Shown piece by piece: positions 9,707-24,676 of a stretch of DNA of 41,281 bases. Source of the stretch: Actinomyces sp. (GTDB taxonomy: Bacteria; Actinomycetota; Acidimicrobiia; Acidimicrobiales; Aldehydirespiratoraceae); the NCBI GenBank assembly GCA_003697065.1, contig RFFY01000191.1, forward strand, positions 1 through 41,281, in the 5' to 3' direction. Position 1 is the first letter of the stretch, and each line of letters starts with the position of its first letter. The notes under the pieces were generated by a model. The model was given only the letters and a program-made list of their open reading frames with translations, was not told where the DNA came from and made no database searches. Both the position numbers and the translations under genes were made by a program.

Positions 9707-11397
9707 CTAGCCCCGATCCTTCACGAGTCTGTGGGGGTTGATGGGCGCGTATCCGCGTAGAGGCCCTCGTGGGCTGGGATTCTGATCTGACGTTGTCGAC
9801 GCGTCCGAATCTCGCACCAGGAGGGCACCTACGAGGTGAACAGTATCTGCACGGTTCCGGTGGTTGTGGAAGGGGGCGGCGAAGGTGTCGTCGCTCACGT
9901 TGGGTTGCATGCTCTTGGCGCGTTCGCGGACCGTCTCGGGTTGGGCCATTCGCTCTCGGCGGTGATCCCGTGGACCGGTGAGCGGGCGCCGGTCCATGAC
10001 CGCGGCAAGGTCCTCACGCAGACCATGTTGATGCTGGCCGGGGGCGGCGAGGCGTGCACCGACATCGAACATCTCCGAGCCCAGGGTGTGCTGTTCGGGT
10101 CGGTGCCGTCGGACTCGACGCTGCACCGGGTCATGCATCAACTCGACGAGTCGACTCGGGCCGGGTTGTGGGACGCAATGGCGGGGGTGCGCGCCCAGGT
10201 GTGGTCGCGCTCGTCGGCGACGATGAGCGGTGAGGTCGTGTTGGACATCGACGCGTCCCTCCACGAGATCCACTCGGAGAACAAGGACGGGACTGCTCCG
10301 CATTACAAGGGCGGGTTCGGGTTCGCTCCGATGTATTGCACCGCGGATGCCACCGGCGAGGTGCTCGGCGTGAAGCTGCGGCCGGGCAACGCCGGCGCGA
10401 ACAACATCGCCGATCACGTCGCGGTCCTCGACCAGGCCATCGCCGGGCTTCCCGCCGAGGTCGCCGCCGGGCACGCCCGCGGCGACGATCCGGGTCTGGT
10501 GCAGCGCAGCGTTCGGGTGCGGACCGACTCCGCTGGGTGCACCGCGTTCGTTCATCGCTGCTGTGAACGCAACATCGGCTTCAGTGTCGTGGCTCGCCGC
10601 AACGCCAGTGTTCACGCAGCGATCAGCCGGATCCGTTTCGACGACGAAGCCTGGACCCAGGCGCTCACCCAGCACGGCAAGCCCCGCAAAGGCGCCGCGG
10701 TCGCCGACGTGACCGAACACGCCGACCTGTCGGGCTGGCCGGCCGGCACCCGGCTGATCGTGCGACGCGAACCGTTGCATCCCGGCGCGCAAGGATCGCT
10801 GTTCCCTTCCGAGACGTTCCGCTACTGGGGCCACTACACCGACTCGACCCTCGATCCGGTCGCCGCCGACCTCGACATGCGCGGCCACGCCCGAGTCGAA
10901 GACAACATCCGCCGCCTCAAGGACTCCGGCGCCTCCCGGTTCCCGTTCCGCGATCTCGACGCCAACACCGCTTGGCTCGATGTCGTGTGCTTCGCCGACG
11001 CCCTGGTCCGCTGGTTCCAGCTCCTCTGCCTCCCCGGCCGCTACACCAACGCGGAACCCAAAACGATGCGCTGGCAGTTCTGGCACACCCCCGCCCGCAT
11101 CGTTCGTCACGCCCGACGACACGTCCTGCGGATCCTCGATGGCTGGCCCAGCACCGGAGAGATCCTCGCCGCCTACCGCCACATCGAACTCCTCACCTGA
11201 ACACCGGACATCCCGTCGCCCGCGACCACCCCGCCGGCCATGAGGCCCTGCTTCACGCCGCCCCGAAACGGCCGCCAAGCCCCAAATGGCCTCGACCCCA
11301 ACCTCGCCGCCCACGAAATCACCGAGCCCCGACCTCAGCCACTCAGGACAAGACCGCCCCGACCCGCCCGGCCAATCTCATGAGCAATCGGGGCTAG
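9707..11397 (+). mobile_element. IS1380-family insertion sequence
   Basis: Imperfect terminal inverted repeats match at 17/21 positions: CTAGCCCCGATCCTTCACGAG at 9707-9727 and the reverse complement of 11377-11397, CTAGCCCCGATTGCTCATGAG. The CTAG-type ends resemble the CCTAG ends of ISEcp1-like IS. The length is about 1.69 kb with a single transposase ORF. Confidence 0.8.
9836..11200 (+). CDS. IS1380-family DDE transposase
   Basis: VLDIDASLHEIHSENKDGTAPHYKGGFGFAPMYC...LRPGNAGANNIADHVAVLD is typical of IS1380-family transposases. The start is GTG. Confidence 0.85.
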   Translation: MNSICTVPVVVEGGGEGVVAHVGLHALGAFADRLGLGHSLSAVIPWTGERAPVHDRGKVLTQTMLMLAGGGEACTDIEHLRAQGVLFGSVPSDSTLHRVMHQLDESTRAGLWDAMAGVRAQVWSRSSATMSGEVVLDIDASLHEIHSENKDGTAPHYKGGFGFAPMYCTADATGEVLGVKLRPGNAGANNIADHVAVLDQAIAGLPAEVAAGHARGDDPGLVQRSVRVRTDSAGCTAFVHRCCERNIGFSVVARRNASVHAAISRIRFDDEAWTQALTQHGKPRKGAAVADVTEHADLSGWPAGTRLIVRREPLHPGAQGSLFPSETFRYWGHYTDSTLDPVAADLDMRGHARVEDNIRRLKDSGASRFPFRDLDANTAWLDVVCFADALVRWFQLLCLPGRYTNAEPKTMRWQFWHTPARIVRHARRHVLRILDGWPSTGEILAAYRHIELLT

Positions 11398-11421
11398 GTG
11401 CACCCAGGTGTTTTGACCAGG

Positions 11422-12495
11422 TTAGGGGAAGGCGCACGTGCTACCGCCCCGGTCTGGGCTTGCTCGCGCCTCGTTGAGGTGCCTGTCAAGAGTTCCGTGC
11501 CAGTTCCTCGATGTCCGCATCATGTCGTTTAGGTCGCCAGCGGAGAGGTGGAGGACGACGGGTTGGCGGCCGCGGGTCTCGAGGAGGGCGGCGAGCTGCT
11601 GGGCGGCGGCTTGGCCGGCTTGGTCGGGATCGAGGGCGATGACGAGGGGGTGGGGAAGCTTGGCGAGGGCGACGGCGGCGGCTTCGTCGGCGTAGGCGGC
11701 ACTGAGAAGGGCGACGGTCCGGTAGCCGGCCGTGGCAGCGGTGAGGGCGTCGATCATGCCTTCCGTGATGATGATCTCGGGGTGCTGGACGGCCGGTGGC
11801 CGGATGCGGGCAAGCCGAGGGTTGGCGGCGAGCTTTCCCGAGGGGTTGAGGTAGCGGCTCCAGTCGGGCCGGGGATTGGGGATGCGAATCTGGGCGTAGG
11901 TGGCACGTCTGGCGGTGATGACGGGCAGGACGACGCCGGAGGCGCGGGGCATGCCGTCGGGTCGGGGTTGGCGGCGGGGACCCAGGTCGGCGCCGATGCG
12001 GTTACGGGCGAGGACCTCGGCGGGTAGGCCACGGGTGTGGGTAAGCCAGTGTCGGAGCCGGGTGGCTTCGGGGTGCCAGAGGCGTTCGGCGCACTCGTCG
12101 ACGTACCGGTTCAGCCCGTCGAGGTCGTAACAGCCAGCCGCTTCTCGGGTGGGGGCTGGCCGGCGGATCGGCTTTGAGACGGGGGGCTGGCACGGTCGTT
12201 CGTGGTGGCCGGCGCGGGCGGCGAGGTAGGCCATGGCGTCACGGATGGTTGAGCCGTGACAGGCCAGGACAAGGTCGATGGCGGTGCCGCCGTCCCCGCA
12301 GCCGTGGCAGCGCCAGCGCTGTTCTCCTCGGCGGCTGGTGAAGATGCTGACCGGTGGGGTGCGGCCGGTCTGGGCGTGGTTCGGGTTGGGGCAGGGCCAC
12401 ATGCGGCTGCGCCCCCGCCCGTGGCCAGGCCCGAGGAGGTCGTCGGCGAGACTGCGTAGGTCGGTGGCGGCCAGCAGGGCGTCACGGTCGTACAT
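11422..12495 (-). CDS. DnaG-like primase of a conjugative element (CHC2 zinc finger plus Toprim)
   Basis: The CHC2 finger reads CPNPNHAQTG...WRCHGCGDGG. The Toprim domain reads IIITEGMIDAL ... IALDPDQAG. The stop lies 24 nt from the right end of the IS. Confidence 0.85.
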   Translation of the reverse strand: MYDRDALLAATDLRSLADDLLGPGHGRGRSRMWPCPNPNHAQTGRTPPVSIFTSRRGEQRWRCHGCGDGGTAIDLVLACHGSTIRDAMAYLAARAGHHERPCQPPVSKPIRRPAPTREAAGCYDLDGLNRYVDECAERLWHPEATRLRHWLTHTRGLPAEVLARNRIGADLGPRRQPRPDGMPRASGVVLPVITARRATYAQIRIPNPRPDWSRYLNPSGKLAANPRLARIRPPAVQHPEIIITEGMIDALTAATAGYRTVALLSAAYADEAAAVALAKLPHPLVIALDPDQAGQAAAQQLAALLETRGRQPVVLHLSAGDLNDMMRTSRNWHGTLDRHLNEARASPDRGGSTCAFP

Positions 12496-12498
12496 GGC

Positions 12499-13866
12499 TC
12501 ACGCTGCGGCGGTGCGGGATCGCCGGGCCGGGTCGCGCCTTGGAGGGCGGGGGTGTCCGGACCTGCTCGATCGTTGTTCCGGGCGGGCCCGGGCGGTGCC
12601 GTGCATCCGGGAGTCGGTGTCGCAGAGGACGACCTCGGCGGGAGCCAGGACGTGTTGGACCACGGCGCTGCGCCCGCCCAGCTTCCAGAGGGCCCGCCCA
12701 CGCGCGAGTTGGGTGACGATGGCGGCTTCGGGTTCGGTGAGCCCGAAGTGGCTTGTGGCAGCGGCGATCTGGTCGGGGGCTTGCCGGAGAATGATCTTGG
12801 TGGCCGAGTCGGCCAGCAGCCCGGCGGCGATCTTGCTGGTGGCGGTGCCGTCGTCGGCTTGGGCGGCCAGGTCGCTGGCTCTGTGGGTGATGCAGAGGTT
12901 GGCAACGCCGTAGGTTCGGCCGAGCTTGAAGCACGATTGCAGGTAGGCGGCGGTATGAAGGTTGCCGAGCAGAGCCCAGGCTTCGTCGAGAACCTGGATT
13001 CGTTGGGGGCCGGGGCAGGCCATGAGCTGTTGGAACCAGCCGGCGGTGGCGACCATGACCAGAGGAAGCGCGTCGGAGTCGAGGGGCACCGCAGACAGGT
13101 CGAGCACGACGCCGGCGCCGTCCCAGCGCAGCGTGACGGTCGAAGGCCCGTCGAACATGCCTCGCAGGGAGCGAGTGAGGAGCTTGTCGACCGCGTAGGC
13201 GACGGTGCGGGTCTCCGCGGTGAGGTCGGCTCGGGGCCCGAGGCGGTCGTCGAGAATGTGGTCGGGGTTGGTGACGAGATGGGCGACGTCGGCGAGGGTG
13301 GGCTCGGCTCGGATGGTGGTGAGGTGTTCGACGGCGGCGAACAGCAGCGCGTCTTCGGGTTGGGTGAGGGCGCGTTCGAGCACACAGCTGACCAGGGCGG
13401 CGCACATGTGGGCGCGGCGAAGCGTCTGCTTGTCGGGTGGTTCGTGGTCAGCGGCTGGCCCGGGAGCCAGTGGATTGAGGGTGGCGGTGCCGCCGGGGCT
13501 GAGGCGAATGGTGGTGAGCCCGAGATCCTCAGCCAGAGACGTGTACTCGCCTTTGGGGTCGGCGATGGCAACCCAGCGGCCCCCTGGCCCGGTGCCATAC
13601 ACGGCGGCTTGGCGCCATAGGAGGGTCTTTACGAGCGCCGACTTGCCGTTTCCGGGTTCACCGAGCACCCAGGCGTTGGGATTGGTGACCAGCCCGGCCG
13701 CGTAGGCTTCGAAGGGATCCCAGCAGAACTCACCACCGCCCGCGAGCAGATCCAGTCCCACATAGGTACCCCGGTGCCCGAAAGAGCCCTGGACCGAGAA
13801 CGGGTAGATGCTGGCGGTGTGGGCGGTGGTGCCCTGGTGGTAGCGGAGCCGTAGCGAGGGTCGCAT
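12499..13866 (-). CDS. VirB4-like T4SS ATPase, C-terminal NTPase half
   Basis: Walker A is LGEPGNGKS and Walker B is IQVLDEAWALL. ATG 13866 overlaps the upstream TAA (TAATG). Confidence 0.85.
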   Translation of the reverse strand: MRPSLRLRYHQGTTAHTASIYPFSVQGSFGHRGTYVGLDLLAGGGEFCWDPFEAYAAGLVTNPNAWVLGEPGNGKSALVKTLLWRQAAVYGTGPGGRWVAIADPKGEYTSLAEDLGLTTIRLSPGGTATLNPLAPGPAADHEPPDKQTLRRAHMCAALVSCVLERALTQPEDALLFAAVEHLTTIRAEPTLADVAHLVTNPDHILDDRLGPRADLTAETRTVAYAVDKLLTRSLRGMFDGPSTVTLRWDGAGVVLDLSAVPLDSDALPLVMVATAGWFQQLMACPGPQRIQVLDEAWALLGNLHTAAYLQSCFKLGRTYGVANLCITHRASDLAAQADDGTATSKIAAGLLADSATKIILRQAPDQIAAATSHFGLTEPEAAIVTQLARGRALWKLGGRSAVVQHVLAPAEVVLCDTDSRMHGTARARPEQRSSRSGHPRPPRRDPARRSRTAAA

Positions 13867-15365
13867 TAGAGGGCGAGCAGGGTTGCCGGGGCGAGACCCA
13901 GCGGAAGGCTGGCGGCCCAGGCCAGGTCTTGGCGGGCGTCGAGGAGCCGCAGATCCATGCCGGCCTCGCGGGCGAGCTGTTCGACGATCTCGGCGTGTTC
14001 GTCGAGCTCCTCGAGGGTGCGGGCAGACACGCAGACCAGCCCGACATAGCCCATCTCTGGGTAGCCGGCGACGAGTTCTTCTTCCCGGTCCAGCAACGCT
14101 TGGGTGGCCCGCCGGTGTCGGGCATCCACGCGTCGGCCCTTGTCCTGTTTTGTGGCGGCGTCGGACTCGAGCTTCACGAGGTCGCGCTCGATACGGCGCC
14201 GACTCTGGAAGGTGGAGACCGGCCGGAAGTAGACGGTCATGGATCGGGTAACACCCCCGCCCGACAAGAAGGGCTCCAGCCAGCTGGGAGGTACGGCCAT
14301 CCGGGGCCAGGTGCCGACCCACCAGGTGCGGTGGTAAGCGCCGTCGACCCGCAGGTGCCGCCAGTCGCCTTCGACGGCCATGGGACCGGCGGTGGAGGAC
14401 CGAAGATGGGCGAGCCGGTCGACCAGCCGGCCGTGGCGCGGCCGGGGCCGGGCGTCGAGGGGGTCGATGCGGGTCCGGATCAGTCGTTGCAGTCCGGGCG
14501 GGTCGTGAGGGTCGCCGGCGGCGAGGTCCGCTGATTGCAAACCCCGCAAGAGGGCTTCGACGGCGGTGATCAGGGCCCGCTGGAGAGGTTCGTCGCCGCG
14601 GTTGGTTCGACTGTGGTGGCGGGCCAGCCGGTCACGAGCAACCGTGATGGACACGACGACCTGGTGGTTGATCGCCGAGGTGGCGCCGAGCTCGAGCAGT
14701 TGCCGGTAGGAGTCCACTGCTACCGGGTTGGGCGTGCCGCGGCCGGCGCTGTCGATCCAGGCGAGATGGTCACCCAGCCCGGAGGGCTGGGCCAGGTCCG
14801 ACCAGGAGAGGTGAGTCACGACTCCCCGCTCGACCGCGTACTGACCCAGGAGATCGCCCCAGCCCGCCAGCAGGCGTTCTTGTTCGGGGCGGGGAGCCAC
14901 CACGAACTGGGGCCCGCTGACCGGCACGACCGCGGTGAGAGTGTGGCGGTGCCGATCGCGGATCGCTCCGAGCGTGGATCCGGCCCGCCAATCGATCCCG
15001 ACGATGTCGAGACCGGCCAGGCACGGCGGCATCGGAGCCGCCGCATCGCCGGTGGGCCACAGGGGAAGCGGCGCGACCCACTGGCGACCGCGCCGCCACC
15101 GGGCCCACGACCAGCCGGCCAGCAGTGGCACCCACTCCCACGTGGGATGACCACCCAGCCGCGTGAAGCTGACCAGCGCGGCGACCAACACCGGAACGGC
15201 GGCCACCGGCAACACAACCCCAGCGGTCAGAGCCGCAACCCCAACGGTGAGACCCCCGCCGATGAGGGCGCACTGGGTCAGCCCGAGGCCCAGGAAGATG
15301 CCCGAGTCATCCAGCGGCTCGAGCCGGTAGGTGCGCTCGGAACGTTCACCGGCCATCGCGGCCAC
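13866..15365 (-). CDS. Membrane protein equivalent to a VirB3-like TM region plus the VirB4 N-terminal domain (SCO6880-like)
   Basis: Two N-terminal TM helices (GLTQCALIGGGLTVGVAALTAGVVLPVAAVPVLVAALV) precede a soluble domain of about 400 aa. The gene sits directly in front of the VirB4 ATPase half and is coupled to it. An alternative ATG start lies at 15356. Confidence 0.65.
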   Translation of the reverse strand: MAAMAGERSERTYRLEPLDDSGIFLGLGLTQCALIGGGLTVGVAALTAGVVLPVAAVPVLVAALVSFTRLGGHPTWEWVPLLAGWSWARWRRGRQWVAPLPLWPTGDAAAPMPPCLAGLDIVGIDWRAGSTLGAIRDRHRHTLTAVVPVSGPQFVVAPRPEQERLLAGWGDLLGQYAVERGVVTHLSWSDLAQPSGLGDHLAWIDSAGRGTPNPVAVDSYRQLLELGATSAINHQVVVSITVARDRLARHHSRTNRGDEPLQRALITAVEALLRGLQSADLAAGDPHDPPGLQRLIRTRIDPLDARPRPRHGRLVDRLAHLRSSTAGPMAVEGDWRHLRVDGAYHRTWWVGTWPRMAVPPSWLEPFLSGGGVTRSMTVYFRPVSTFQSRRRIERDLVKLESDAATKQDKGRRVDARHRRATQALLDREEELVAGYPEMGYVGLVCVSARTLEELDEHAEIVEQLAREAGMDLRLLDARQDLAWAASLPLGLAPATLLAL

Positions 15366-16653
15366 CTCGATGCGGAGGCCGGGCCGGGTCGGCCGTTTGG
15401 CCTGGGCCGGGTGGGCGCCGGCGGGACGGGTTGGGATCTCGTCGGGCGGCCGCGCTGACCGCGCCGGCGGTCTCGGTGACTACCCGTCCCCCGCGGGCGG
15501 CCGCACCTGCCGTGGCGCGTGCCGCCACTGCGCCGACGGTTGCCGCGCCGACCGGTGAGGACCCTGGTGGGGATGCCGTGGCCGCCGTGGGTGTGCCGGG
15601 GGCGGACCGGGCGTTGGCGATCTGCGCGTAGCGACGCCCCGAGACCATCTGGGCCGTATTGGCCAGCATGAGCCCTTGGTGGCCGGCTCGGACCGGTCCG
15701 CTTCGGATCCCCTGGGCGACCATCGCCGCTTCGGTCAACGGCAGCAAACGGGCGACCAGCAACGGCGAGAAGGCCGACACGCCGAAAGCGGCCGCCGCGG
15801 TGAGCAGGATCCCCACGGCTTGGGTGACCGACCCGCCGGGATCCTCGGCGAACACCTCCGGCGGCGGGAGTGCGGTGACCTCCCCACCGGCGCCGGTGCC
15901 GACCGCCGCGGCTGCGGCCACCGACAGAGCGACCGCAATGACCAGCTTGGAGACGACCAGGGCCACGAGCAGGTCCAACAGCCGACGGCTGGCGCCTTTG
16001 GTCGCCGGCCACAGGCGTGCGGCGAACACCAGCGGGGCCAGCGCCACGACGATGTAGATGAGCGCGGAGCGCACCACCAGCTCGGCAACCAGCACCAGAC
16101 CGGCGAGCACGGTGACCAATCCGAGGATGAACACCACGAAGGCGCTGGCCGGTCCGCCGCTGAGCACGGCGAGGCTGCTCACCACCGCACCGAAGTCGGC
16201 GAGGTCGTCCTGGAAGGTGGCCAGCACCTGACCGGAGAGGGCGTCGGTGACCCGGATGAGGATCTGAGTGATGGTGACCCGCCCGATCATCCCGAGGACC
16301 GAGATGGGCAACTCGACGCCGATGCGGTGCAGCATCCCGGCGGCGTCGCCGGCCAGGGTCCCTTGGACGATCCCCGCGAGCACGAACAGCACCAGCAGTC
16401 CCGCCCCGATCTGCAGCGTGGTCGCGTAGGGGCCGTCGCCGGTGATGAACCAGTCCGCCTGCACATTGGGGTCGCTGGCGTCGACGAAGAAGTTGAACAC
16501 TCCGCCCACGACCCACACCACGGCGTCGATGACCCAGGCAGTGAGCCCGCCGATGATGACCTCGAACCCGGCGGTGGCCACGTCACCGACGAATCCGGTG
16601 ACCTTGTCGATCACCCATCCGACGGGATTGGGAAACCCGAAAGCCAGGATCAT
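15346..16653 (-). CDS. Polytopic membrane protein, TrbL/VirB6-like
   Basis: There are at least 6 hydrophobic helices and an A/P/G/R-rich C-terminal tail. ATG 16653 overlaps the upstream stop (ATGA). The position between the VirB8-like and VirB4 genes fits this role. Confidence 0.7.
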   Translation of the reverse strand: MILAFGFPNPVGWVIDKVTGFVGDVATAGFEVIIGGLTAWVIDAVVWVVGGVFNFFVDASDPNVQADWFITGDGPYATTLQIGAGLLVLFVLAGIVQGTLAGDAAGMLHRIGVELPISVLGMIGRVTITQILIRVTDALSGQVLATFQDDLADFGAVVSSLAVLSGGPASAFVVFILGLVTVLAGLVLVAELVVRSALIYIVVALAPLVFAARLWPATKGASRRLLDLLVALVVSKLVIAVALSVAAAAAVGTGAGGEVTALPPPEVFAEDPGGSVTQAVGILLTAAAAFGVSAFSPLLVARLLPLTEAAMVAQGIRSGPVRAGHQGLMLANTAQMVSGRRYAQIANARSAPGTPTAATASPPGSSPVGAATVGAVAARATAGAAARGGRVVTETAGAVSAAARRDPNPSRRRPPGPGQTADPARPPHRGGRDGR

Positions 16654-17772: not shown

Positions 17773-18909
17773 ATGAGACGCTCCAGGGTGGGCACCGCGA
17801 TCGCCGCCGGCGTGCTGGTATGCGCCGCCGGGTTCACCGCCCTGCCCGTACTGGCCGTAGCCAACGGGTCAACCGGGACTGGCTGCGCCGTGGCGGACCC
17901 CGCCGACGACGACGGGACCCCCAGCATCCTCGGGCCCGCCACCGTGGGCGTCCCCGAGCTGCGCGCCTGGTGGGCCAGCACCGGACGCGGCCAACCGGAG
18001 CGGCTGGCCCTCGACATCGACGACCTCATCGCCTTGTATGTGACCGAGGGCGACACCGAAGGCGTTCGAGGGGACCTCGCCTTCGCCCAAGCCGTGCTCG
18101 AAACCGGCGGGTTCACCAACCGCGACACCACCATCAACAACTACGCCGGGATCGGCCACTACGACACCGCCCCCGCCGGCCTGGCGTTCCCCGACCCCAT
18201 CACCGGGGTGCGCGCCCACATCCAGCTCCTCAAGAAGTACGCCGCGGGCAACTCCGCTCCCCTGGCCACCCCCGACGTCGCCCCCGACGCCGGGGCCGCC
18301 GCCACCACCTGGGGCGGCCTGGCCGGCACCTGGGCCAGCTCCCCGGTCTACTGGCAGTCCCTCAACGCCATATGGCAGGCGATGACCACCCATGCCGGCG
18401 CCGCCCAGGTTCCCGCCCCGGCGCAAGCGGCAAGCCTGGGATGTGCTGATCTGCTCGTCGAGGTCGCCGGTGGATACGCCCTGCCCGTCGCCCGCCGCTG
18501 GTACGACCAGCACCCCGAATGGTTCAGTCGACCCCACCACGACTACCCGGCCATCGACCTCCCCGTACCCGTCGGCACCGCCCTATACGCCATCACCGAC
18601 GGGGTGATCGTGGCCACACCAACAGGAGGCCGTTGCGGCACCGGGGTCGTGCTCAACGGCGACGACCACGCCCAATACACCTACTGCCACGGGCGGACCG
18701 CCAGCACCACAGTGCGAGCCGGAGACCGGGTCCGTGCCGGCCAGCACCTGCTCGACAGCGCCTCCACCGGCAACAGCACCGGCCCCCACCTGCACCTGGC
18801 CATACTTGCCGCCGGCCAGCAGCGCTGCCCCGGGCCGCTGCTCGTCGCCATCGCCAACCAACAGCCCATCCCACCCGCGGGCCTGCCGGCCAGCGGCTGC
18901 ACCAGCTGA
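17773..18909 (+). CDS. Secreted bifunctional cell-wall hydrolase: glucosaminidase-like plus M23 peptidase (functional VirB1 analogue)
   Basis: A signal peptide is present. FAQAVLETGGFTN...NNYAGIG is a glucosaminidase-type motif. HHDYPAIDL and GNSTGPHLHL are M23 metal-binding motifs. Confidence 0.85.
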   Translation: MRRSRVGTAIAAGVLVCAAGFTALPVLAVANGSTGTGCAVADPADDDGTPSILGPATVGVPELRAWWASTGRGQPERLALDIDDLIALYVTEGDTEGVRGDLAFAQAVLETGGFTNRDTTINNYAGIGHYDTAPAGLAFPDPITGVRAHIQLLKKYAAGNSAPLATPDVAPDAGAAATTWGGLAGTWASSPVYWQSLNAIWQAMTTHAGAAQVPAPAQAASLGCADLLVEVAGGYALPVARRWYDQHPEWFSRPHHDYPAIDLPVPVGTALYAITDGVIVATPTGGRCGTGVVLNGDDHAQYTYCHGRTASTTVRAGDRVRAGQHLLDSASTGNSTGPHLHLAILAAGQQRCPGPLLVAIANQQPIPPAGLPASGCTS

Positions 18910-18936
18910 CCGCAACACCTACCGTTCATCGCCGCC

Positions 18937-19338
18937 ATGGCCCGCTTCCACGCCGTCTACTACCGGGCACGCGACGGAACCGAACCGGTCCGCGAGTTCC
19001 TCGACGCCCTCGACGACACGACCGCCGCCGTGCTCGCCCACCAGATCGACCGGCTCAACCTGCTCAGCGACCAGATGCCCCACCTGCCGTTTCCCCACAG
19101 CTCCCAGGTCGACGGCGAGCTACGGGAACTGCGCTGCCACCACGGCCGCAGCCACTACCGCATCCTCTACCGCCGCTCCGACCGGCTCCTGATCCTGCTC
19201 CACATCTTCGCCAAACGCACCGGCAAGATCCCCGCCGCCGAGATCGCCGTCGCCCAACAACGCTGGGACGACTTCAAAGACCGCATGAACACCCAGCCTC
19301 GCACCCCACCCCGGGCCGCCGGCCACGACGCCCCCTGA
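18937..19338 (+). CDS. RelE/ParE-superfamily toxin, HigB/Gp49 (DUF891)-like
   Basis: ELRELRCHHGRSHYRILYRRSDRLLILLHIFAKRTGKIPAAEIAVAQQRWDDF is the typical Gp49-like pattern. Confidence 0.8.
   Translation: MARFHAVYYRARDGTEPVREFLDALDDTTAAVLAHQIDRLNLLSDQMPHLPFPHSSQVDGELRELRCHHGRSHYRILYRRSDRLLILLHIFAKRTGKIPAAEIAVAQQRWDDFKDRMNTQPRTPPRAAGHDAP
19311..19338 (+). repeat. Direct repeat copy 1 (last 28 nt of the toxin gene, including the TGA)
   Basis: CCGGGCCGCCGGCCACGACGCCCCCTGA is identical to 19809-19837 except for one extra C in copy 2. Confidence 0.95.
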
Positions 19339-19357
19339 TCGCAAGGGTGCCGGTGTC

Positions 19358-19708
19358 TCAGGCCCCTCCGCTTGCGGTGGCGACGGTCGCCACCATGTCC
19401 GCCGTCGTGCAGAAGGTGGCGTCGGGGAACCGCTTTCGGGTGGCGGCCACCTTGTCGGGGGAGCCACCGGCGAAGACGATCGGGATGTGCCGGCGGCTCT
19501 TGGCCTCCCACAGCCACTCTGCTATCGCTCGACCGTGGGACGGAAGCCGGTCCAAGGAGACCACCATGACGTCGGGCAGAGGATCGGGCCGTTCGGGGCG
19601 ACTCCCCTGGCGCCAATGCACCATCACCTGATGGCCGGCGTCCTCCAGCGCCCGGCGTCGCTCGGCCACTTCCTGCTCATGCCAGTGAATGAGCCAGACT
19701 CTCGCCAT
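19358..19708 (-). CDS. Small protein with a CheY-like receiver-fold pattern (degenerate); function unknown
   Basis: ATG 19708 is preceded by GAGGA. RVWLIHWHEQE...DVMVVSLDRLPSHG...IPIVFAGG mimics receiver beta1/beta3/beta4 spacing but lacks the N-terminal acidic pair. A TTG start at 19735 is also possible. Confidence 0.5.
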   Translation of the reverse strand: MARVWLIHWHEQEVAERRRALEDAGHQVMVHWRQGSRPERPDPLPDVMVVSLDRLPSHGRAIAEWLWEAKSRRHIPIVFAGGSPDKVAATRKRFPDATFCTTADMVATVATASGGA

Positions 19709-19808
19709 CGCTGGTCCTCGCTTCGACGCCGACAACCCCCTGGCTGGCCCTCAAACAACTCGCCCCCCACTGACTCGGCCCGAAGCATACCCGGCCGAAG
19801 CCCGCGGA

Positions 19809-19837
19809 CCGGGCCGCCCGGCCACGACGCCCCCTGA
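19809..19837 (+). repeat. Direct repeat copy 2 (orphan copy of the toxin 3' end)
   Basis: CCGGGCCGCCCGGCCACGACGCCCCCTGA lies 8 nt upstream of the palindrome, SD and HTH gene. Confidence 0.95.
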
Positions 19838-19845
19838 CACCACCA

Positions 19846-19863
19846 GTTAGCAGAACTGCTAAC
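19846..19863. promoter_or_regulatory. Perfect palindrome GTTAGCAG-AA-CTGCTAAC, candidate operator of the downstream HTH protein
   Basis: The 8-bp arms and 2-nt spacer are AT-richer than the surroundings. The palindrome sits 25 nt upstream of ATG 19888, just before the GAGGAGG SD. Confidence 0.5.
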
Positions 19864-19887
19864 CTGCCTGCGAGGAGGTGAAACACC

Positions 19888-20232
19888 ATGCCCCCATCGC
19901 CGACCAGCCCAGCCGGCAGCAGCGTGGCCGACCACATCAGCGACCGGCGAGCCCGCAGCGCCACCTACCGCGACACCCAGGACCGGCTGCGGCCCTTCGA
20001 GGAGATCGCCCGCATGGTCATCCTGCGCCGCGCCGAACTCGGGCTGACCCAACAGGAGCTCGCCGAGCGGATGGGCACCACCAAATCGGTGATCTCCCGC
20101 ATCGAAAGCGGCCAGCACCGCACCAGCACCGAAACCCTCCGGCGGCTCGCCGAAGCCCTCGACGGTCACGCGGTGGTCGGTTTCGACTTCAACCCCGATC
20201 ACAGATCCAAGCCCGAGGTTGTGCGCCTCTGA
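19888..20232 (+). CDS. XRE-family HTH protein, HigA-like antitoxin/repressor
   Basis: A GAGGAGG SD lies 9 nt upstream. LRRAELGLTQQELAERMGTTKSVISRIESGQHRTSTETLRRLAEAL is a classic XRE HTH. Confidence 0.85.
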   Translation: MPPSPTSPAGSSVADHISDRRARSATYRDTQDRLRPFEEIARMVILRRAELGLTQQELAERMGTTKSVISRIESGQHRTSTETLRRLAEALDGHAVVGFDFNPDHRSKPEVVRL

Positions 20233-20260
20233 CGCGGCTCGCACGCAGGATCGCCGCGGG

Positions 20261-21550
20261 ATGAACTGGCCGAACTACGAGGTGGCCGTGGGTGACGAGC
20301 TCGCCCTCTATGCCGGTCCGGCCAGGGTGAACGGCCGGCCTGTCACCGCCAGAGTGTGGTTCCCGCTGGCCTCAACCGACCTGAGGTTGCGCTGGGAGGC
20401 GACTGGGGGAGCCGATCTCGACTTGCACATCACCGACCAGGGCGGCGTCACCCAGCAGGCAGCGCTGGAGATCGACCACCCGCACATCGGGTCGTTCAGG
20501 GTTGATGCCACAGTGAACGAGGCGACGACGTCGATCGCGGGGTCTGCTTCGACGACGACTGGTTTCGGGACGGTCGACTCTGAGGTCCTCGGGGACCGGG
20601 CCGGCTCGGCCCAGCTGGTCAGCTGCGGGTGGTTGAACCTGCCCTCGCTGGCAGCCACGCCAAGCGGATCGTCTGAGTATCCGACGGTGCTGTCGGCCTG
20701 CGGATGGAACCTGGCGCTAAGGCCGATCGAGCCATTCACCGAGCGGGTCCGGGAGTTCCGCCGGCGGGGCCATCCCGTTTATGTGTCGCACCACGGCGAG
20801 TTGACGCGAGCCGATGGACATGCCTTCTCTGCCGAGGACGCCTTGGAGACGTTGCATGCATTCCAGTTGGCGTTGTCGTTCGTGCTGGGTCGCTTCGTCG
20901 CACCGTTGGCCCCAGCCGGAGAGCGGCACGGTGAGGTCGCATGGGTGCTCGCTCCTGCGTGGTTCTGCGATGAGGGTGTGGCCAACGATGGGATCATCTG
21001 GCCACTCGACCCCGAGGATCTCACCGGTGCCGTGGCCCGAATAGTCGCCGGGCTCCTTGACGGCGCTGACGCCTCACATCATCTGCGCCACGTTCTCATG
21101 CATGCGGTCGGCTGCCACCGGGTCGGCTTCGCCGAGCAGCGTCTCCTGACCGCCCAGGCAGGCCTGGAGTTCTTCCACAACTGGCAGGGCGGAGCAGGCA
21201 TAGGCGGGGCGGCGACGAGGATCAGCGGACTCCTCCAAGCCGCTGGCATCTCCACCGAGCTGCCCCCGGATTTCGATGCGCTCACCCAACTCTGTAGCGA
21301 TCCGGACATCGAACGACGACCGTCGCAGACCGGGCCCGATGCGGTGGTCTGGGTCCGCAATGAGGTGACCCACCCTAAGGATCCGCGGCGGCTGTATGAC
21401 ATTGACCGGCTCGTCTATGAGGCGTCGGCTCTGGCCCGTGAATACCTCGAACTCCTGATCCTCCACCGGCTGGACTATCGGGGCTACTGGCGGAAGCTCT
21501 ACCGGCCCGGGGCTTGGGCCTTCGAGCGCGAACGAGTCCCTTGGGCCTGA
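20261..21550 (+). CDS. Protein of unknown family with a C-terminal HEPN-type RNxxxH motif
   Basis: ATG 20261 lies 29 nt after the HTH stop. The C-terminal helical region contains AVVWVRNEVTHPKD followed by LVYEASALAREYLELLILHRL. I could not assign the N-terminal ~300 aa. Confidence 0.65.
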   Translation: MNWPNYEVAVGDELALYAGPARVNGRPVTARVWFPLASTDLRLRWEATGGADLDLHITDQGGVTQQAALEIDHPHIGSFRVDATVNEATTSIAGSASTTTGFGTVDSEVLGDRAGSAQLVSCGWLNLPSLAATPSGSSEYPTVLSACGWNLALRPIEPFTERVREFRRRGHPVYVSHHGELTRADGHAFSAEDALETLHAFQLALSFVLGRFVAPLAPAGERHGEVAWVLAPAWFCDEGVANDGIIWPLDPEDLTGAVARIVAGLLDGADASHHLRHVLMHAVGCHRVGFAEQRLLTAQAGLEFFHNWQGGAGIGGAATRISGLLQAAGISTELPPDFDALTQLCSDPDIERRPSQTGPDAVVWVRNEVTHPKDPRRLYDIDRLVYEASALAREYLELLILHRLDYRGYWRKLYRPGAWAFERERVPWA

Positions 21551-21566
21551 ACAAACAGCCGCAGGT

Positions 21567-21580
21567 GAGCCATTCGGCTC
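21567..21580. terminator. Short hairpin GAGCC-ATTC-GGCTC between convergent genes
   Basis: The stem is 5 bp and lies in the 46-nt gap between stops at 21550 (+) and 21597 (-). There is no U-tract, so support is weak. Confidence 0.25.
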
Positions 21581-21596
21581 GATTGGAACCCGCCAG

Positions 21597-23156
21597 CTAC
21601 CGGCGTTGGAGGTCGAAGCGGAGTTGTTCGATGGTGTCGTCGGGGTCGCCGAGTTGGGCTTGTTGGAGGGCGGCGGCGTGTTCGCGGTAGACGGCTTCGG
21701 CACCGGCACGGTCGTCGTTGGCCAGGTGGGCGCGCATGAGAGCCTCGACCACGGTGCTGTTGAGCGGGACCGCTTGGGCGAGGCGCCGGAGAACGCCGAT
21801 GGCCTCGGTGGGCTGGTCGAGTTCGAGGTACAGCTCGGCGCACGCCTGCGCGATGGTGGCGATGCGGTACTCCCAGGTGGTGCTGTGGTGTTCGAAGTCG
21901 ACCCAACCAAACGAGGCACGAGCCGCGTTGGGGTAGGAGAAGGGCTTGCCGGTGACCAGATCGAGCGCCGCCCGGTAGTGGGCGACAGCACCGGCTGGCT
22001 CGAGGTCCGCGGCGGCTTGGACGTGCCAATCGAACAGCTCCAGATCGGTGCGCACACCCGGGCCGACGTCGTAGGTGCCGCTTCGGTTGGCCGGGAAGTG
22101 GTGGGAGCCGAGCGCGTCGCGGCATTCGGTCATGACGTCGCGCAGGCGTTTTCGATGTGAGGTGCCGTCAGAGCCGAACCAGCAAGCCTCCTCGAGGCGC
22201 TCGGTGGTCACCGACCGGTGCATGGCCAGGTAGGCGGCGACGGCGGTGGCCTTGGGCTTGAGCGGTTTCCCGCCTTCGACGCAGATGTCGCCGAGCAGCC
22301 GCACGAGCACCTCGTAGTCGGGGGGTTCGGCTGGGTGTGCAGCCGGATTGGAACCGCCTGGTGTGGCGGGCTCGGACCCGTTGGAGGACCCGGAATGTTC
22401 GGCCACGAGGAGGTCGATGAGGGTCTGTTCTTCGGGGCTTGCGGGGGTCACGAGCAGGCGGCACATATCGGCGAGCTCGTCGCCGTTGAGCTCCTGGGGT
22501 GGGCAGGCGATGTCGGCCGGCTCGAAGGTGAGGGTGTCGGGTTCGCAGCGGACGGTGGCACACGCCCCATCGAACGCTCCGACCACAACGACGGCAACCG
22601 TCGAGGGCAGGCTGGTGCGCAACGTGTCGTGGAGCCCGGACGGGGGTGGCTGGTCGGCGACCACGGCGAGCGGCACGAGCGCGTCGTGGTCGGGGTCGTG
22701 GGCCCGGCCGATGAACGAGTTTGGCCAGCCGTTGTCGGATAGTGCCTGGTGGGACTGGCCGGCCCAGGCGGCCACGTCGTCGGTGATGTCCTCCCAGGTG
22801 TTGACGACGGTGAGGTGTTCGAGGACGCTGACGTCCGCGTCTCCGACGAGGTCCCCGACAACGATGACCCGCAGTGTTTCGGCGAGGGGGCTGAGGGCCA
22901 GTTCGGTAAGGATGGACCGGGCAACGTCGGTGGCCACGGACTCGTCACCCGTAAGCGAGATCAACCCGTCGGTCTCGAGATCGAGGTAGAGCTGCGCGTC
23001 GTCTTCGGGTTGGCCGATGGTGACCAGCAGCGGTGCGGCGCATCGGGGTCCTTCGATGGCCTCAGGCTCTGGTGGGTCCAGGAGGGTCCAGATTGCGCCG
23101 TCGTCGGTGCTGTCCCATCCGGGTGGCGGGTCGGGGTCGGGCGGTTCGATCAGCAC
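21597..23156 (-). CDS. Regulator with a winged-helix (OmpR/SARP-type) plus BTAD domain in its C-terminal half
   Basis: YEVLVRLLGDICVEG...KPKATAVAAYLAMHRSVTTERLEEACW is the wHTH region. DLELFDWHVQAA...YRAALDLVTGKPF...WV..E and a TPR-like tail form the BTAD region. The N-terminal ~270 aa are unassigned. Confidence 0.7.
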   Translation of the reverse strand: MLIEPPDPDPPPGWDSTDDGAIWTLLDPPEPEAIEGPRCAAPLLVTIGQPEDDAQLYLDLETDGLISLTGDESVATDVARSILTELALSPLAETLRVIVVGDLVGDADVSVLEHLTVVNTWEDITDDVAAWAGQSHQALSDNGWPNSFIGRAHDPDHDALVPLAVVADQPPPSGLHDTLRTSLPSTVAVVVVGAFDGACATVRCEPDTLTFEPADIACPPQELNGDELADMCRLLVTPASPEEQTLIDLLVAEHSGSSNGSEPATPGGSNPAAHPAEPPDYEVLVRLLGDICVEGGKPLKPKATAVAAYLAMHRSVTTERLEEACWFGSDGTSHRKRLRDVMTECRDALGSHHFPANRSGTYDVGPGVRTDLELFDWHVQAAADLEPAGAVAHYRAALDLVTGKPFSYPNAARASFGWVDFEHHSTTWEYRIATIAQACAELYLELDQPTEAIGVLRRLAQAVPLNSTVVEALMRAHLANDDRAGAEAVYREHAAALQQAQLGDPDDTIEQLRFDLQRR

Positions 23157-24676
23157 TTCAAGGGTGTCGTCGCTGTGTCGGACGAGTCGAGGCCGACTGG
23201 CTGAGGATCGTGCGACGAGGGAGGCGGCAAGCCAGCCGAGGACGCTCTGCAGGTCTTCGATGCGGTCCTCGTCAGCCTGGGCGACGACCGCCTGATGGAG
23301 GGCCTGGTGGTCGGCCGGGGTGGGGTTTGTGATCTGTCCGGGGTGGTCGTTGGCGAAGCGGCGACGGCGTCGGTGCAGGAGCCGCTTGAGGCCGACGCCA
23401 ACGCGATGCTGGATAGTCCACCCAGGGCAACGACCGCCGGCGCGGACGCTGGCCTGTCATCGCTGCGCGGGTGCGGGGCCTGCGGGTCTGGCGGCTGCTC
23501 TGATGCCGGTTCGGTTGGCGGGGTGGGTTCGCTGTCGTCTGTCGTCGCCTCTCCGGTCTCGGGCAGCGGTGCAAAGGTGGAAGTTGGCGTGTCGGGTGCG
23601 GCCGTTTCCACCGGGGAGCGGTCAGGTGGAGGTGCCGTTCGATCATCCACGGGTGATGGCGGGGGGACGGCAGCTGGTTCAAACCCGGTGGGCGGAAGGG
23701 TGAGGATCTGGCCTGGCAGGATGAGGTCAGGGTTGCCCGGCTCCACGTAACGGCCTCGGTTCTGTTCGATCAGCTGCTGCCAGTAGGGGAGGATCTCGGT
23801 ATCTGTTGGTGACCGGCCCAGATCTGTGGCGAGGCGGTGCTCGGCGATGGTCCACAAGTTGTCGCCCGGCTCGACTGCGATCGTCTCCGACACGACTGGC
23901 GGCGAGGGTACGGTCGGGTCGACGGACCCGGACGACCTGTGGTCGGCGGTGGTGGGGCCGACCGTGGCGTCGGGGGGTAGTGCGAGAAGCCAGCCGGGGC
24001 GAAGGGTGTCGTCGTTGGGAGCGACGACGGCGCCGTCGGGCTGTACCCGCCCGACGTTGAGGTCGAGGATCTCCCGCCAGCGCAGGCCGTCACCGAGGGT
24101 GCGCTCGGCGATCGCCCAGTAGCTGTCGTGGCGCTGCACGGTGACGGTGGGCAGCGCTGATGCCGGGGGCGCTTGAGGGCCGGTGCGAGTGCCGGTCGAC
24201 GAGTTGGTATCGGGAGCCGTGCTCGGGACGGGTGGCGGTGCCGTGGTGGGGGCGACCGTGACGACCGGAGGTGTGAGCACCAGGGATGGGGTGGCGGCGT
24301 GTGCCCGGGCGGGTTGGAACGCGGAGGCGATCATGAGGATCCCGCCGATGAGGCGTGCGGCGGTGGCCTGGAACCCAGGGAGGACGGGTAGCCGGGTGGT
24401 GGGGCGGCCCCGGGCGGCAGCGATGATCTCGACGACGACCGCCAGGGTGAGCTGGGCCCAGGCGAGCCATGCGATGACGGCCAGGGTGTTGACGATGACC
24501 TCGTCGGCGATCCCAGAGCGGGCCCCATCAGCGAGGGCGTCGATGGAGGGGATGTTGGTCGGCAGTGGCCAACCGGCTCCGACGATCAGCACGGCGGGCA
24601 CCCCGGCGACCAGTCCCACGGTGAGCGAGAGTGACAGCAGGGCGCGGCTGATGCGGGGGAGGCGATGGTGGGTCAT
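23150..24676 (-). CDS. Membrane protein with two LysM-like peptidoglycan-binding repeats
   Basis: Three N-terminal TM segments are present. The LysM-like repeats are VTVQRHDSYWAIAERTLGDGLRWREILDLN and IAVEPGDNLWTIAEHRL...ILPGQILTLP. The C-terminus is P/T-rich. Confidence 0.75.
   Translation of the reverse strand: MTHHRLPRISRALLSLSLTVGLVAGVPAVLIVGAGWPLPTNIPSIDALADGARSGIADEVIVNTLAVIAWLAWAQLTLAVVVEIIAAARGRPTTRLPVLPGFQATAARLIGGILMIASAFQPARAHAATPSLVLTPPVVTVAPTTAPPPVPSTAPDTNSSTGTRTGPQAPPASALPTVTVQRHDSYWAIAERTLGDGLRWREILDLNVGRVQPDGAVVAPNDDTLRPGWLLALPPDATVGPTTADHRSSGSVDPTVPSPPVVSETIAVEPGDNLWTIAEHRLATDLGRSPTDTEILPYWQQLIEQNRGRYVEPGNPDLILPGQILTLPPTGFEPAAVPPPSPVDDRTAPPPDRSPVETAAPDTPTSTFAPLPETGEATTDDSEPTPPTEPASEQPPDPQAPHPRSDDRPASAPAVVALGGLSSIALASASSGSCTDAVAASPTTTPDRSQTPPRPTTRPSIRRSSPRLTRTASKTCRASSAGLPPPSSHDPQPVGLDSSDTATTPLKC

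Follow-up and report, generated by a model that had tools for sequence, protein, structure and literature searches.

Single-protein HEPN effectors of the ApeA type are already known. The ApeA of Escherichia coli, and so far no other, is known to be activated by a ligand that acts by way of a pocket lying between the HEPN domain and the N-terminal domain, to cleave tRNA anticodon loops, and to cause abortive infection; the E. coli ApeA proteins studied are predominantly alpha-helical (Ec2ApeA comprises at least 583 residues), and the closest structural homologues of the ApeA HEPN domain are the HepT toxins 5YEP and 7AE8 (bioRxiv 10.64898/2026.01.26.701840). HEPN domains in general are defined by an Rx4-6H motif with a polar residue (N, D, or H) after the arginine and by a further acidic residue, which is contributed by helix 2; the motif straddles the point where core helix 3 ends and the loop to helix 4 starts, and an insert can be found between helices 2 and 3 (Anantharaman et al, 2013, PMC3710099). 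The YopA family, whose namesake is the SPbeta prophage protein YopA of Bacillus subtilis, is catalogued in Pfam with no function attached, and HEPN is mentioned neither in its family names nor in the names given by NCBI. Here we describe a 429-aa protein of this family that is encoded in contig RFFY01000191.1 from a high-GC actinobacterial metagenome-assembled genome (MAG) with the record label “Actinomyces sp.”; the complete 41,281-bp contig was analysed and is referred to below as the window. With moderate confidence, we interpret the 429-aa open reading frame (ORF) as a stand-alone ApeA-like HEPN ribonuclease (RNase) of the YopA family that is carried as cargo in a hotspot of an integrative and conjugative element (ICE).

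A preliminary description of this DNA had drawn attention to the ORF, and we found it where it had been placed, beginning 28 nt past the stop codon of a helix-turn-helix (HTH) gene of the XRE family (Table 1). The ATG start fits the N-termini of the closest homologues, and an alternative TTG start at 20219, which would give a protein of 443 aa, was dropped for this reason. The two Pfam domains YopA_M (PF26308) and YopA_C (PF27216), both newer models, were assigned to the 429-aa protein and to four homologues (P0001–P0005) in the precomputed annotation of the protein collection. An exhaustive phmmer search recovered at least 1040 cluster representatives at E<=1e-3, including 198 at E<=1e-10, family size being counted as clusters at 50% identity. 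The nearest of these relatives are just 46–51% identical to the 429-aa protein. Databases name members of the family “hypothetical protein” or, as UniRef does, “YopA central domain-containing protein”. The genomes that bear homologues belong to Streptomyces, Actinoplanes, Acidimicrobiia, Microthrixaceae, and Bifidobacteriaceae, with one Acidobacteriota MAG and one weak match in a Rhizobiaceae MAG (24% identity, E=2e-8). A tblastn search with the 429-aa protein returned no match in the phage or plasmid collections, which places the protein far from the SPbeta prototype. A phmmer and profile search of PDB sequences gave chance-level matches only. For the analyses that follow, residue conservation was read from an alignment of 108 full-length members, and genomic loci were gathered with 14 closer sequences. 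Scans of the 108 members against PHROGs and PADLOC yielded isolated weak matches at most.

The AlphaFold2 (AF2) model of the full-length protein (predicted local distance difference test [pLDDT] 93.2, predicted template modelling score [pTM] 0.93) is composed of a beta-rich N-terminal domain, an alpha/beta Mid domain, and a C-terminal helical domain. In the latter, the proposed HEPN core helices span residues 270–287 (H1), 291–308 (H2), 358–370 (H3), and 384–403 (H4), with a helical insert at residues 317–346 between H2 and H3; in the model, this layout is the canonical HEPN topology. The RNxxxH peptide VWVRNEVTHPKD that the preliminary description had singled out is present as claimed, and its conservation in homologues, which had been put forward as a check, was upheld: R366 and H371 are each found in 107 of the 108 aligned members, and the position after the arginine (residue 367) is an asparagine in 94, a histidine in 9, and an aspartate in 4. 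Because R366 and H371 are each retained in 107 of 108 sequences, the motif is far from a chance feature. Each element of the published HEPN definition has a counterpart here. RNEVTH at residues 366–371 provides the Rx4H motif with a polar residue after the arginine; in the predicted structure, helix 358–370 ends at this motif and is followed by a loop, a short turn, and helix 384–403; and helix 291–308 contains two conserved acidic residues, E303 and E292 (the latter a glutamate in 95 of 108 members and an aspartate in a further 9).

Structural comparison of the C-terminal domain model with PDB entries by Foldseek placed HepT/HEPN toxins in 11 of the top 30 matches (among them 8xeh, 8xdj, 8yuf, 6m6w, 5yep, 7ae6, 7ae2, and 6m6u), all non-significant at E-values of 0.6–3.7 and TM scores of 0.3–0.47. 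In the fold search proposed in the preliminary description, HepT toxins were thus the best structural matches, none of them significant. Taking all lines of evidence together, including the comparison with ApeA given below, we consider it very probable that the C-terminal region carries a catalytically intact HEPN-type domain. The N-terminal beta domain gave no significant fold match in Foldseek. Its weak likenesses (E>=0.47), which involved Hcp, VgrG, and the tail-tube and baseplate proteins of phages (Hcp2, 9vne_B, for instance, with a target-relative TM of 0.50 and E=0.65), were not trusted and are no more than a lead as to what this putative sensor resembles.

The suggestion in the preliminary description that ApeA-like HEPN domains should be searched proved to be the right lead, as judged by a profile match with the motif in register, by the HepT structural neighbours, and by the conserved motif and helix-2 glutamate. 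When the 108 members were scanned singly against Pfam, HEPN_Apea (PF18739) was weakly matched by five (best E=0.012) and ApeA_NTD1 by two, and no other Pfam family was matched by more than one member. A direct comparison was made possible by a locus of Streptomyces sp. NPDC050636 (L034), in which a genuine ApeA (ApeA_NTD1 4e-52, HEPN_Apea 8e-22) is convergent with a YopA-like gene about 210 bp away. We built an ApeA alignment (A6) from this protein and compared it with the YopA-like family alignment (A1) by hhalign. The two families were matched over 218 columns with a probability of 59.6% (P=8.9e-5), and the C-terminal domains alone with a probability of 57.9%; the match between the families includes the Mid domain from residue 182 on. 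The alignment sets “VRNxLvHPk” opposite “ARNDLAHEG” of ApeA and “fvEqR...aaLE” opposite “yvENN...AAEVL”, so that E292 and E303 fall in the region of ApeA E345 and E356. In control comparisons with a reversed template and with 20 column-shuffled alignments, the probability did not exceed 2.6% and the score did not exceed 20.5, against 42.5 for the real pair. Based on this profile alignment, the HEPN domain of the 429-aa protein is probably a distant relative of the ApeA HEPN domain.

ApeA and the 429-aa protein are both single polypeptides in which N-terminal and Mid regions of unknown homology precede a C-terminal HEPN domain, both carry RNxxxH and an upstream helix-2 glutamate that align in register (probability 60%), and HepT toxins are the best structural neighbours of both (non-significant ones for the 429-aa protein), 5yep being shared by the two sets of matches. 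As in ApeA, the gene has no conserved partner, and it lies in defence-type neighbourhoods, once beside a genuine ApeA. The 429-aa protein was nevertheless not filed as ApeA because neither it nor the family consensus reaches the curated thresholds of ApeA_NTD1 (PF18862) and HEPN_Apea (PF18739). HepT, which belongs to the HepT/MntA systems (HEPN-MNT, type II/VII toxin-antitoxin [TA]), shares with the 429-aa protein the Rx4H motif, and its minimal HEPN fold accounts for the top structural matches (8xeh, 8xdj, 5yep, and 7ae6). HepT, however, has only about 130 aa and is always paired with an MNT nucleotidyltransferase antitoxin, whereas no MNT gene is present at the 429-aa locus and the HEPN domain is fused there to about 245 aa of N-terminal domains.

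The claim that the gene rides on an ICE is backed by the conjugation-type genes of the window, which encode a type IV secretion system coupling protein, a TrbL/VirB6-like protein, an M23/glucosaminidase cell-wall hydrolase, and a Toprim primase. Genes for the Tad pilus and for a DDE transposase were found as well. On this gene content, a conjugative-element setting is a reasonable reading. The backbone of the window is shared with three metagenomic or MAG contigs (L047, L057, and L059; these and similar numbers are our own locus labels) at 52–91% protein identity. On the left, the common gene order is Toprim, a 499-aa protein, a TrbL-like protein, DUF8175, a 96-aa protein, M23, Gp49, and HTH; on the right, the contigs have the BTAD/LysM and Tad/TadE genes in common. 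DNA alignments showed that similarity ends just past the HTH stop codon and returns at the BTAD stop codon. Between these borders, the window holds the YopA-like gene alone, whereas L047 has a HIRAN protein and a type II cyclic oligonucleotide-based antiphage signalling system (CBASS), L059 has a 214-aa protein with an RNxxxH motif that may be a second, unrelated HEPN cargo, and L057 has DoxX, hydrolase, and kinase-like genes. By these comparisons, the 429-aa gene appears to be cargo that can be exchanged at a hotspot on a conjugative element of actinobacteria, and the genomic pattern is the footprint of mobile, conflict-related cargo. The GC content of the gene (65–67%), which is a little under that of the backbone (70–73%), is consistent with acquired cargo. 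In more distant elements (L006/L007, with Tad genes beyond, and L001), a YopA-like gene again lies beside a LysM-BTAD gene.

The recurrence of the BTAD neighbour raises the alternative that the 429-aa protein is not an anti-phage effector but works for the conjugation or LysM/BTAD-Tad machinery, for instance as an RNase with a regulatory or exclusion function. A BTAD or LysM-BTAD gene does adjoin the YopA-like gene in the window, in L001/L002 (the homologue that is 47% identical), and in L006/L007 (32%, Tad genes beyond). The BTAD gene is, however, part of a LysM/BTAD-Tad backbone module that is syntenic in L047, L057, and L059 at 65–68% identity, and all three keep this module without a YopA-like gene; conversely, in about 25 loci from Streptomyces and other sources, the YopA-like gene has no BTAD, LysM, or Tad gene as a neighbour. 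A hotspot for insertions that these elements have in common at the BTAD 3' end accounts better for the adjacency, and we regard a role in this machinery as quite improbable.

Across the loci of about 30 YopA-like homologues, the neighbours were heterogeneous and included neither a conserved XRE gene nor any other conserved partner. The genes found within two positions encode a Mokosh-like helicase/MTES_1575 nuclease (in five to six Streptomyces loci), STAND NTPases, MADS-like proteins, AbiEii, RmrA, and transposases. From this context, a defence or toxin role of the 429-aa protein is plausible.

The Streptomyces neighbourhood deserves separate mention. In six loci (L018, L021, L023, L024, L028, and L031), the YopA-like gene adjoins a gene whose product has about 1500 aa (in L018, the gene call gives 487 aa), and the five long copies match AAA_11/AAA_12 helicase and MTES_1575 nuclease models and, in PADLOC, MkoA/MkoC, Hhe, and PDC-S37. 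On the opposite, downstream flank, L019, L023, and L028 encode a 1535–1624-aa protein without a Pfam domain. This neighbourhood could be a conserved island or a multi-gene system. A two-gene system of YopA-like protein and helicase/restriction endonuclease was considered for Streptomyces and not adopted, the pair being present in 6 loci and absent from most others.

The HTH gene immediately upstream had been read in the preliminary description as the repressor or antitoxin of the HEPN protein, and the RelE/HigB-like gene before it as the third member of one unit. The features on which this reading was built are real. Both genes are where they had been reported, with clear HTH_3 and PF05973 matches; a Shine-Dalgarno (SD) sequence (AGGAGG, 19873–19878) lies 9 nt ahead of the HTH ATG at 19888; and the palindrome GTTAGCAG-AA-CTGCTAAC has perfectly complementary 8-nt arms around a 2-nt spacer. 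Even with up to three mismatches allowed, the window contained no second match to the palindrome (0.02 expected by chance). In its favour, a type II pair of XRE-HTH and HEPN protein, or a three-gene addiction or defence unit with Gp49, can claim that the two genes share a strand, that the 28 nt separating them contain no predicted terminator, and that an operator-like palindrome precedes the HTH gene. Many HEPN toxins, moreover, have cognate antitoxins.

Comparison of the loci assigns the HTH gene to another partner. More than 1000 homologues were recovered for the HTH protein, and the top 120 are 70–81% identical to it. In every relative with upstream sequence (about 20 loci, including L038, L039, L040/L047, L043, L045, L046, L048, L049, L051, L053, L055, L057, and L059), the HTH homologue follows a Gp49 gene at a distance of 60–70 bp, and the Gp49 copies are 72–80% identical. 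An exact copy of GTTMGCAGAACTGCTAAC is present in 17 related loci, each time in the spacer of these two genes. From this constant order and the shared spacer operator, we assign the palindrome, the SD sequence, and the HTH gene to a Gp49/HigB-like-XRE module, in which the HTH protein would be the antitoxin/repressor partner of Gp49. The arrangement of Gp49, HTH_3, palindromic operator, and SD sequence is that of a Gp49/HigB-like + XRE type II TA system.

The HEPN gene, by contrast, shows no such attachment. Among the genes immediately adjacent to YopA-like homologues in about 30 loci, none is an XRE gene (best phmmer E=0.039), and two genes away from one homologue, the gene L013_-2 matched the HTH protein at E=0.0017. 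A cognate antitoxin that co-occurs with the HEPN gene, as expected of a type II TA system, was not found in these loci. The HTH and YopA-like genes do not co-vary, because the HTH family is conserved at 70–81% identity and the nearest YopA-like proteins only at 46–51%. HTH gene and operator always follow Gp49 whatever comes downstream (CBASS, TOTE, DoxX, or other genes), and what follows the HTH changes between elements, which speaks equally against the three-gene unit. Comparative genomics thus largely refutes an HTH-HEPN pairing, and we consider it, with or without Gp49, most improbable.

A weaker tie between the two is conceivable. The Gp49-HTH pair could be a regulated landing pad whose autoregulated promoter/operator drives downstream cargo, so that the HTH protein would control the HEPN gene without being its antitoxin. 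In five of seven elements, the HTH stop codon is followed after 13–83 nt by a first cargo gene in the same orientation (window, 28 nt; L043, 26; L046, 13; L057, 25; L059, 83), with TOTE and HEPN-like genes among the cargo found there. In L047, whose slot contains CBASS, the gene right after the HTH is on the opposite strand, as it is in L038. The TOTE example comes from an Acidobacteriota MAG contig (CAVTAI010000012.1; L046, 9553–12436), in which a Gp49-HTH pair is followed 13 nt on by a TOTE primase (AEP-TOTE, 1e-81) and a DEAD/ResIII helicase; its HTH is 73% identical and its operator is the same, and the element differs from that of the window. A promoter and terminator scan of positions 18700–21900 was blank, a scan that is uninformative for a high-GC actinobacterium. 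Read-through or transcription of the 429-aa gene from the regulated promoter of the TA module is possible on the gene arrangement. As an explanation of the locus in its own right, a landing pad is rather unlikely, and it is compatible with a stand-alone HEPN RNase and not exclusive of it.

Several results weigh against the stand-alone ApeA-like RNase. No Foldseek match of the full-length model (against PDB and BFVD, at E<=1e-3) or of the domain model was significant, the best E-value being 0.59. The hhalign probability of about 60% lies below usual confidence thresholds and was obtained with an ApeA template alignment of low diversity. The N-terminal domains of the YopA-like and ApeA alignments showed no detectable similarity by hhalign; that of the 429-aa protein is beta-rich, whereas the E. 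coli ApeA proteins are mainly helical and larger. Searches with hmmscan gave zero matches to curated models in the local Pfam-A, NCBIfam, and PADLOC libraries for the 429-aa protein, and likewise for the family consensus, full-length or C-terminal. In the searchable literature, no published function was found for YopA-family members under PF26308, PF27216, YopA with HEPN, or SPbeta yopA. The cargo slot is not exclusively defensive, as the DoxX, hydrolase, and kinase-like genes of L057 illustrate.

These results leave some room for a protein that is HEPN-like without being a conflict nuclease, such as an RNA-processing, nucleotide-binding, or prophage life-cycle factor, as SPbeta YopA itself might be. 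The family is named for a prophage gene of unknown function, its structural matches are non-significant, and some HEPN domains are non-catalytic (PMC3710099). Non-catalytic HEPN domains, however, typically lose the Rx4-6H motif (PMC3710099), of which R and H are each kept here in 107 of 108 members, and the patchy distribution, the mobile-element and defence-gene neighbourhoods, and the lack of conserved synteny speak against a housekeeping role. We find such a factor improbable. The 429-aa protein is most likely an ApeA-like single-protein abortive-infection RNase, whose RNase activity, target, trigger, and defence phenotype we infer by analogy with ApeA and other HEPN effectors.

We hypothesise that the C-terminal HEPN domains would dimerise to form a composite, metal-independent RNase site comprising R366, N367, H371, and E303. 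The beta-rich N-terminal domain and the Mid domain would keep this site inactive until an infection- or stress-derived cue is received; the Mid-domain residues [TS]176-H177, S206-F207, and G210 are, as a matter of speculation, candidates for a ligand pocket. The activated enzyme would then cut cellular RNA, with tRNA the likeliest target, and the resulting arrest of the cell would abort propagation of a phage or a rival element. A dedicated antitoxin would be unnecessary in this scheme, and the HTH protein and operator would contribute transcription at most to a gene that lies on the same strand just downstream.

A broader proposition, which we hold only tentatively, is that the YopA family as a whole is an unrecognised sister of ApeA, that is, an abortive-infection system of single HEPN proteins that is widespread and has a new beta-rich sensor for a different trigger, and that the interval from Gp49-HTH to BTAD is a defence hotspot with cargo run from the TA promoter. 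The taxa in question would be Actinomycetota, Acidobacteriota, Pseudomonadota (through the one weak Rhizobiaceae match), and, by family name, a Bacillus prophage; the hotspot cargo would comprise CBASS and HEPN proteins, with TOTE beside Gp49-HTH in a different element. What our analysis adds is evidence that, in this family, an intact HEPN domain related to that of ApeA is joined to an N-terminal region of a different, beta-rich kind, the placement of a YopA-like gene in a defined ICE cargo hotspot that is alternatively filled by CBASS, and the reassignment of the HTH gene and operator to the Gp49 toxin, which corrects a tempting mis-annotation as an HTH-HEPN TA system. If the family were an active ApeA-like nuclease, a large unlabelled group of single-protein HEPN immune effectors would be added, most of them in Actinomycetota, where few defence systems have been tested. 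Its N-terminal domain, being unlike that of ApeA, should sense a different signal, which bears on how stand-alone HEPN effectors detect infection. The cleanly delimited hotspot, with identical borders and varied contents, could be mined for more defence genes. The 429-aa gene is a good candidate for experiments, and a specialist would not be greatly surprised by it.

Table 1. Positions of the features discussed, in the window unless another locus is named.
Feature	Locus	Position	Strand	Remarks
Gp49 (DUF891)/RelE-HigB-like toxin gene, 133 aa	Window	18937..19338	+	PF05973 E=3.5e-17
Insertion of ~499 bp	Window	19339..19837		Divides the Gp49-HTH pair; minus-strand ORF; ends in a copy of the Gp49 3' end
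ORF within the insertion, 124/125 aa	Window	19358-19735	-	Inside the 499-bp insertion
Operator-like palindrome GTTAGCAGAACTGCTAAC	Window	19846..19863		Gp49-HTH spacer
XRE-family HTH, 114 aa	Window	19888..20232	+	HTH_3 E=9e-16
Variable cargo slot	Window	20233..21596		HTH stop to BTAD-gene stop; contains the YopA-like gene alone
YopA-family protein, 429 aa	Window	20261..21550	+	RMH80579.1 “hypothetical protein D6683_05085”; beta-rich N-terminal, alpha/beta Mid, and C-terminal HEPN-like domains
N-terminal beta-rich domain, ~residues 1-155	Window	20261..20725	+	Candidate sensor; AF2 strands from 14 to 155
Mid alpha/beta domain, ~residues 156-244	Window	20726..20992	+	Near-invariant [TS]176-H177, F189, S206-F207, G210, G220
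C-terminal HEPN-like helical domain, residues 245-429	Window	20993..21547	+	AF2 pLDDT 93.7
E303 codon	Window	21167..21169	+	Conserved helix-2 acidic residue; E in 105/108
R366-N-E-V-T-H371 codons	Window	21356..21373	+	Rx4H signature; R366 21356-21358, H371 21371-21373
BTAD-domain protein, 519 aa	Window	21597..23156	-	PF03704 E=1.3e-10; convergent with the YopA-like gene; right slot border
DDE transposase	Window	9836-11200		DDE_Tnp_1_4 E=1e-47; between coupling-protein and Toprim genes, inside the conjugation region
Cargo slot	L047 (JGI 3300009868, Ga0130016_10000887)	10577-15849		HIRAN protein and type II CBASS: patatin, CD-NTase, E2-CBASS, second CD-NTase with AGS-C
Cargo slot	L059	10411-11055		214-aa protein with VVRNHIAH; weak, sub-threshold HEPN_RiboL-PSP match, E=0.011
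Cargo slot	L057			DoxX, alpha/beta hydrolase, kinase-like gene
ApeA and YopA-like gene pair	L034	4668-6035 and 6249-7775	+ and -	Two HEPN single-protein candidates side by side

The Gp49-HTH pair of the window differs from its relatives in being split by an insertion. Alignment of about 20 related loci showed the Gp49 stop codon followed directly by the operator and the HTH gene, with a gap of about 60–70 bp between the two genes, compared with 550 bp in the window. The insertion is bounded by a 29-bp direct repeat, in which positions 19809–19837 duplicate the Gp49 3' end (19310–19338), including the stop codon, with one indel between the copies. The ORF inside it had no match in Pfam, NCBIfam, or PDB and only a weak ThsB/TIR-like match in PADLOC (E=0.03).

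On the Acidobacteriota contig CAVTAI010000012.1 (518 kb), there are, in addition, two YopA-like paralogues (L032 and L033) at a distance of about 13 kb from each other, with a second Gp49-HTH pair nearby. At positions 21597–24676 of the window, LysM (508 aa) and BTAD (519 aa) are encoded by two separate, overlapping ORFs, whereas L047, L057, L059, and L006 encode a single LysM-BTAD protein of 1021–1179 aa; the two-ORF state may reflect a split, a frameshift, or an assembly error. The DDE transposase gene among the conjugation genes of the window probably represents the insertion of an insertion sequence into the element.

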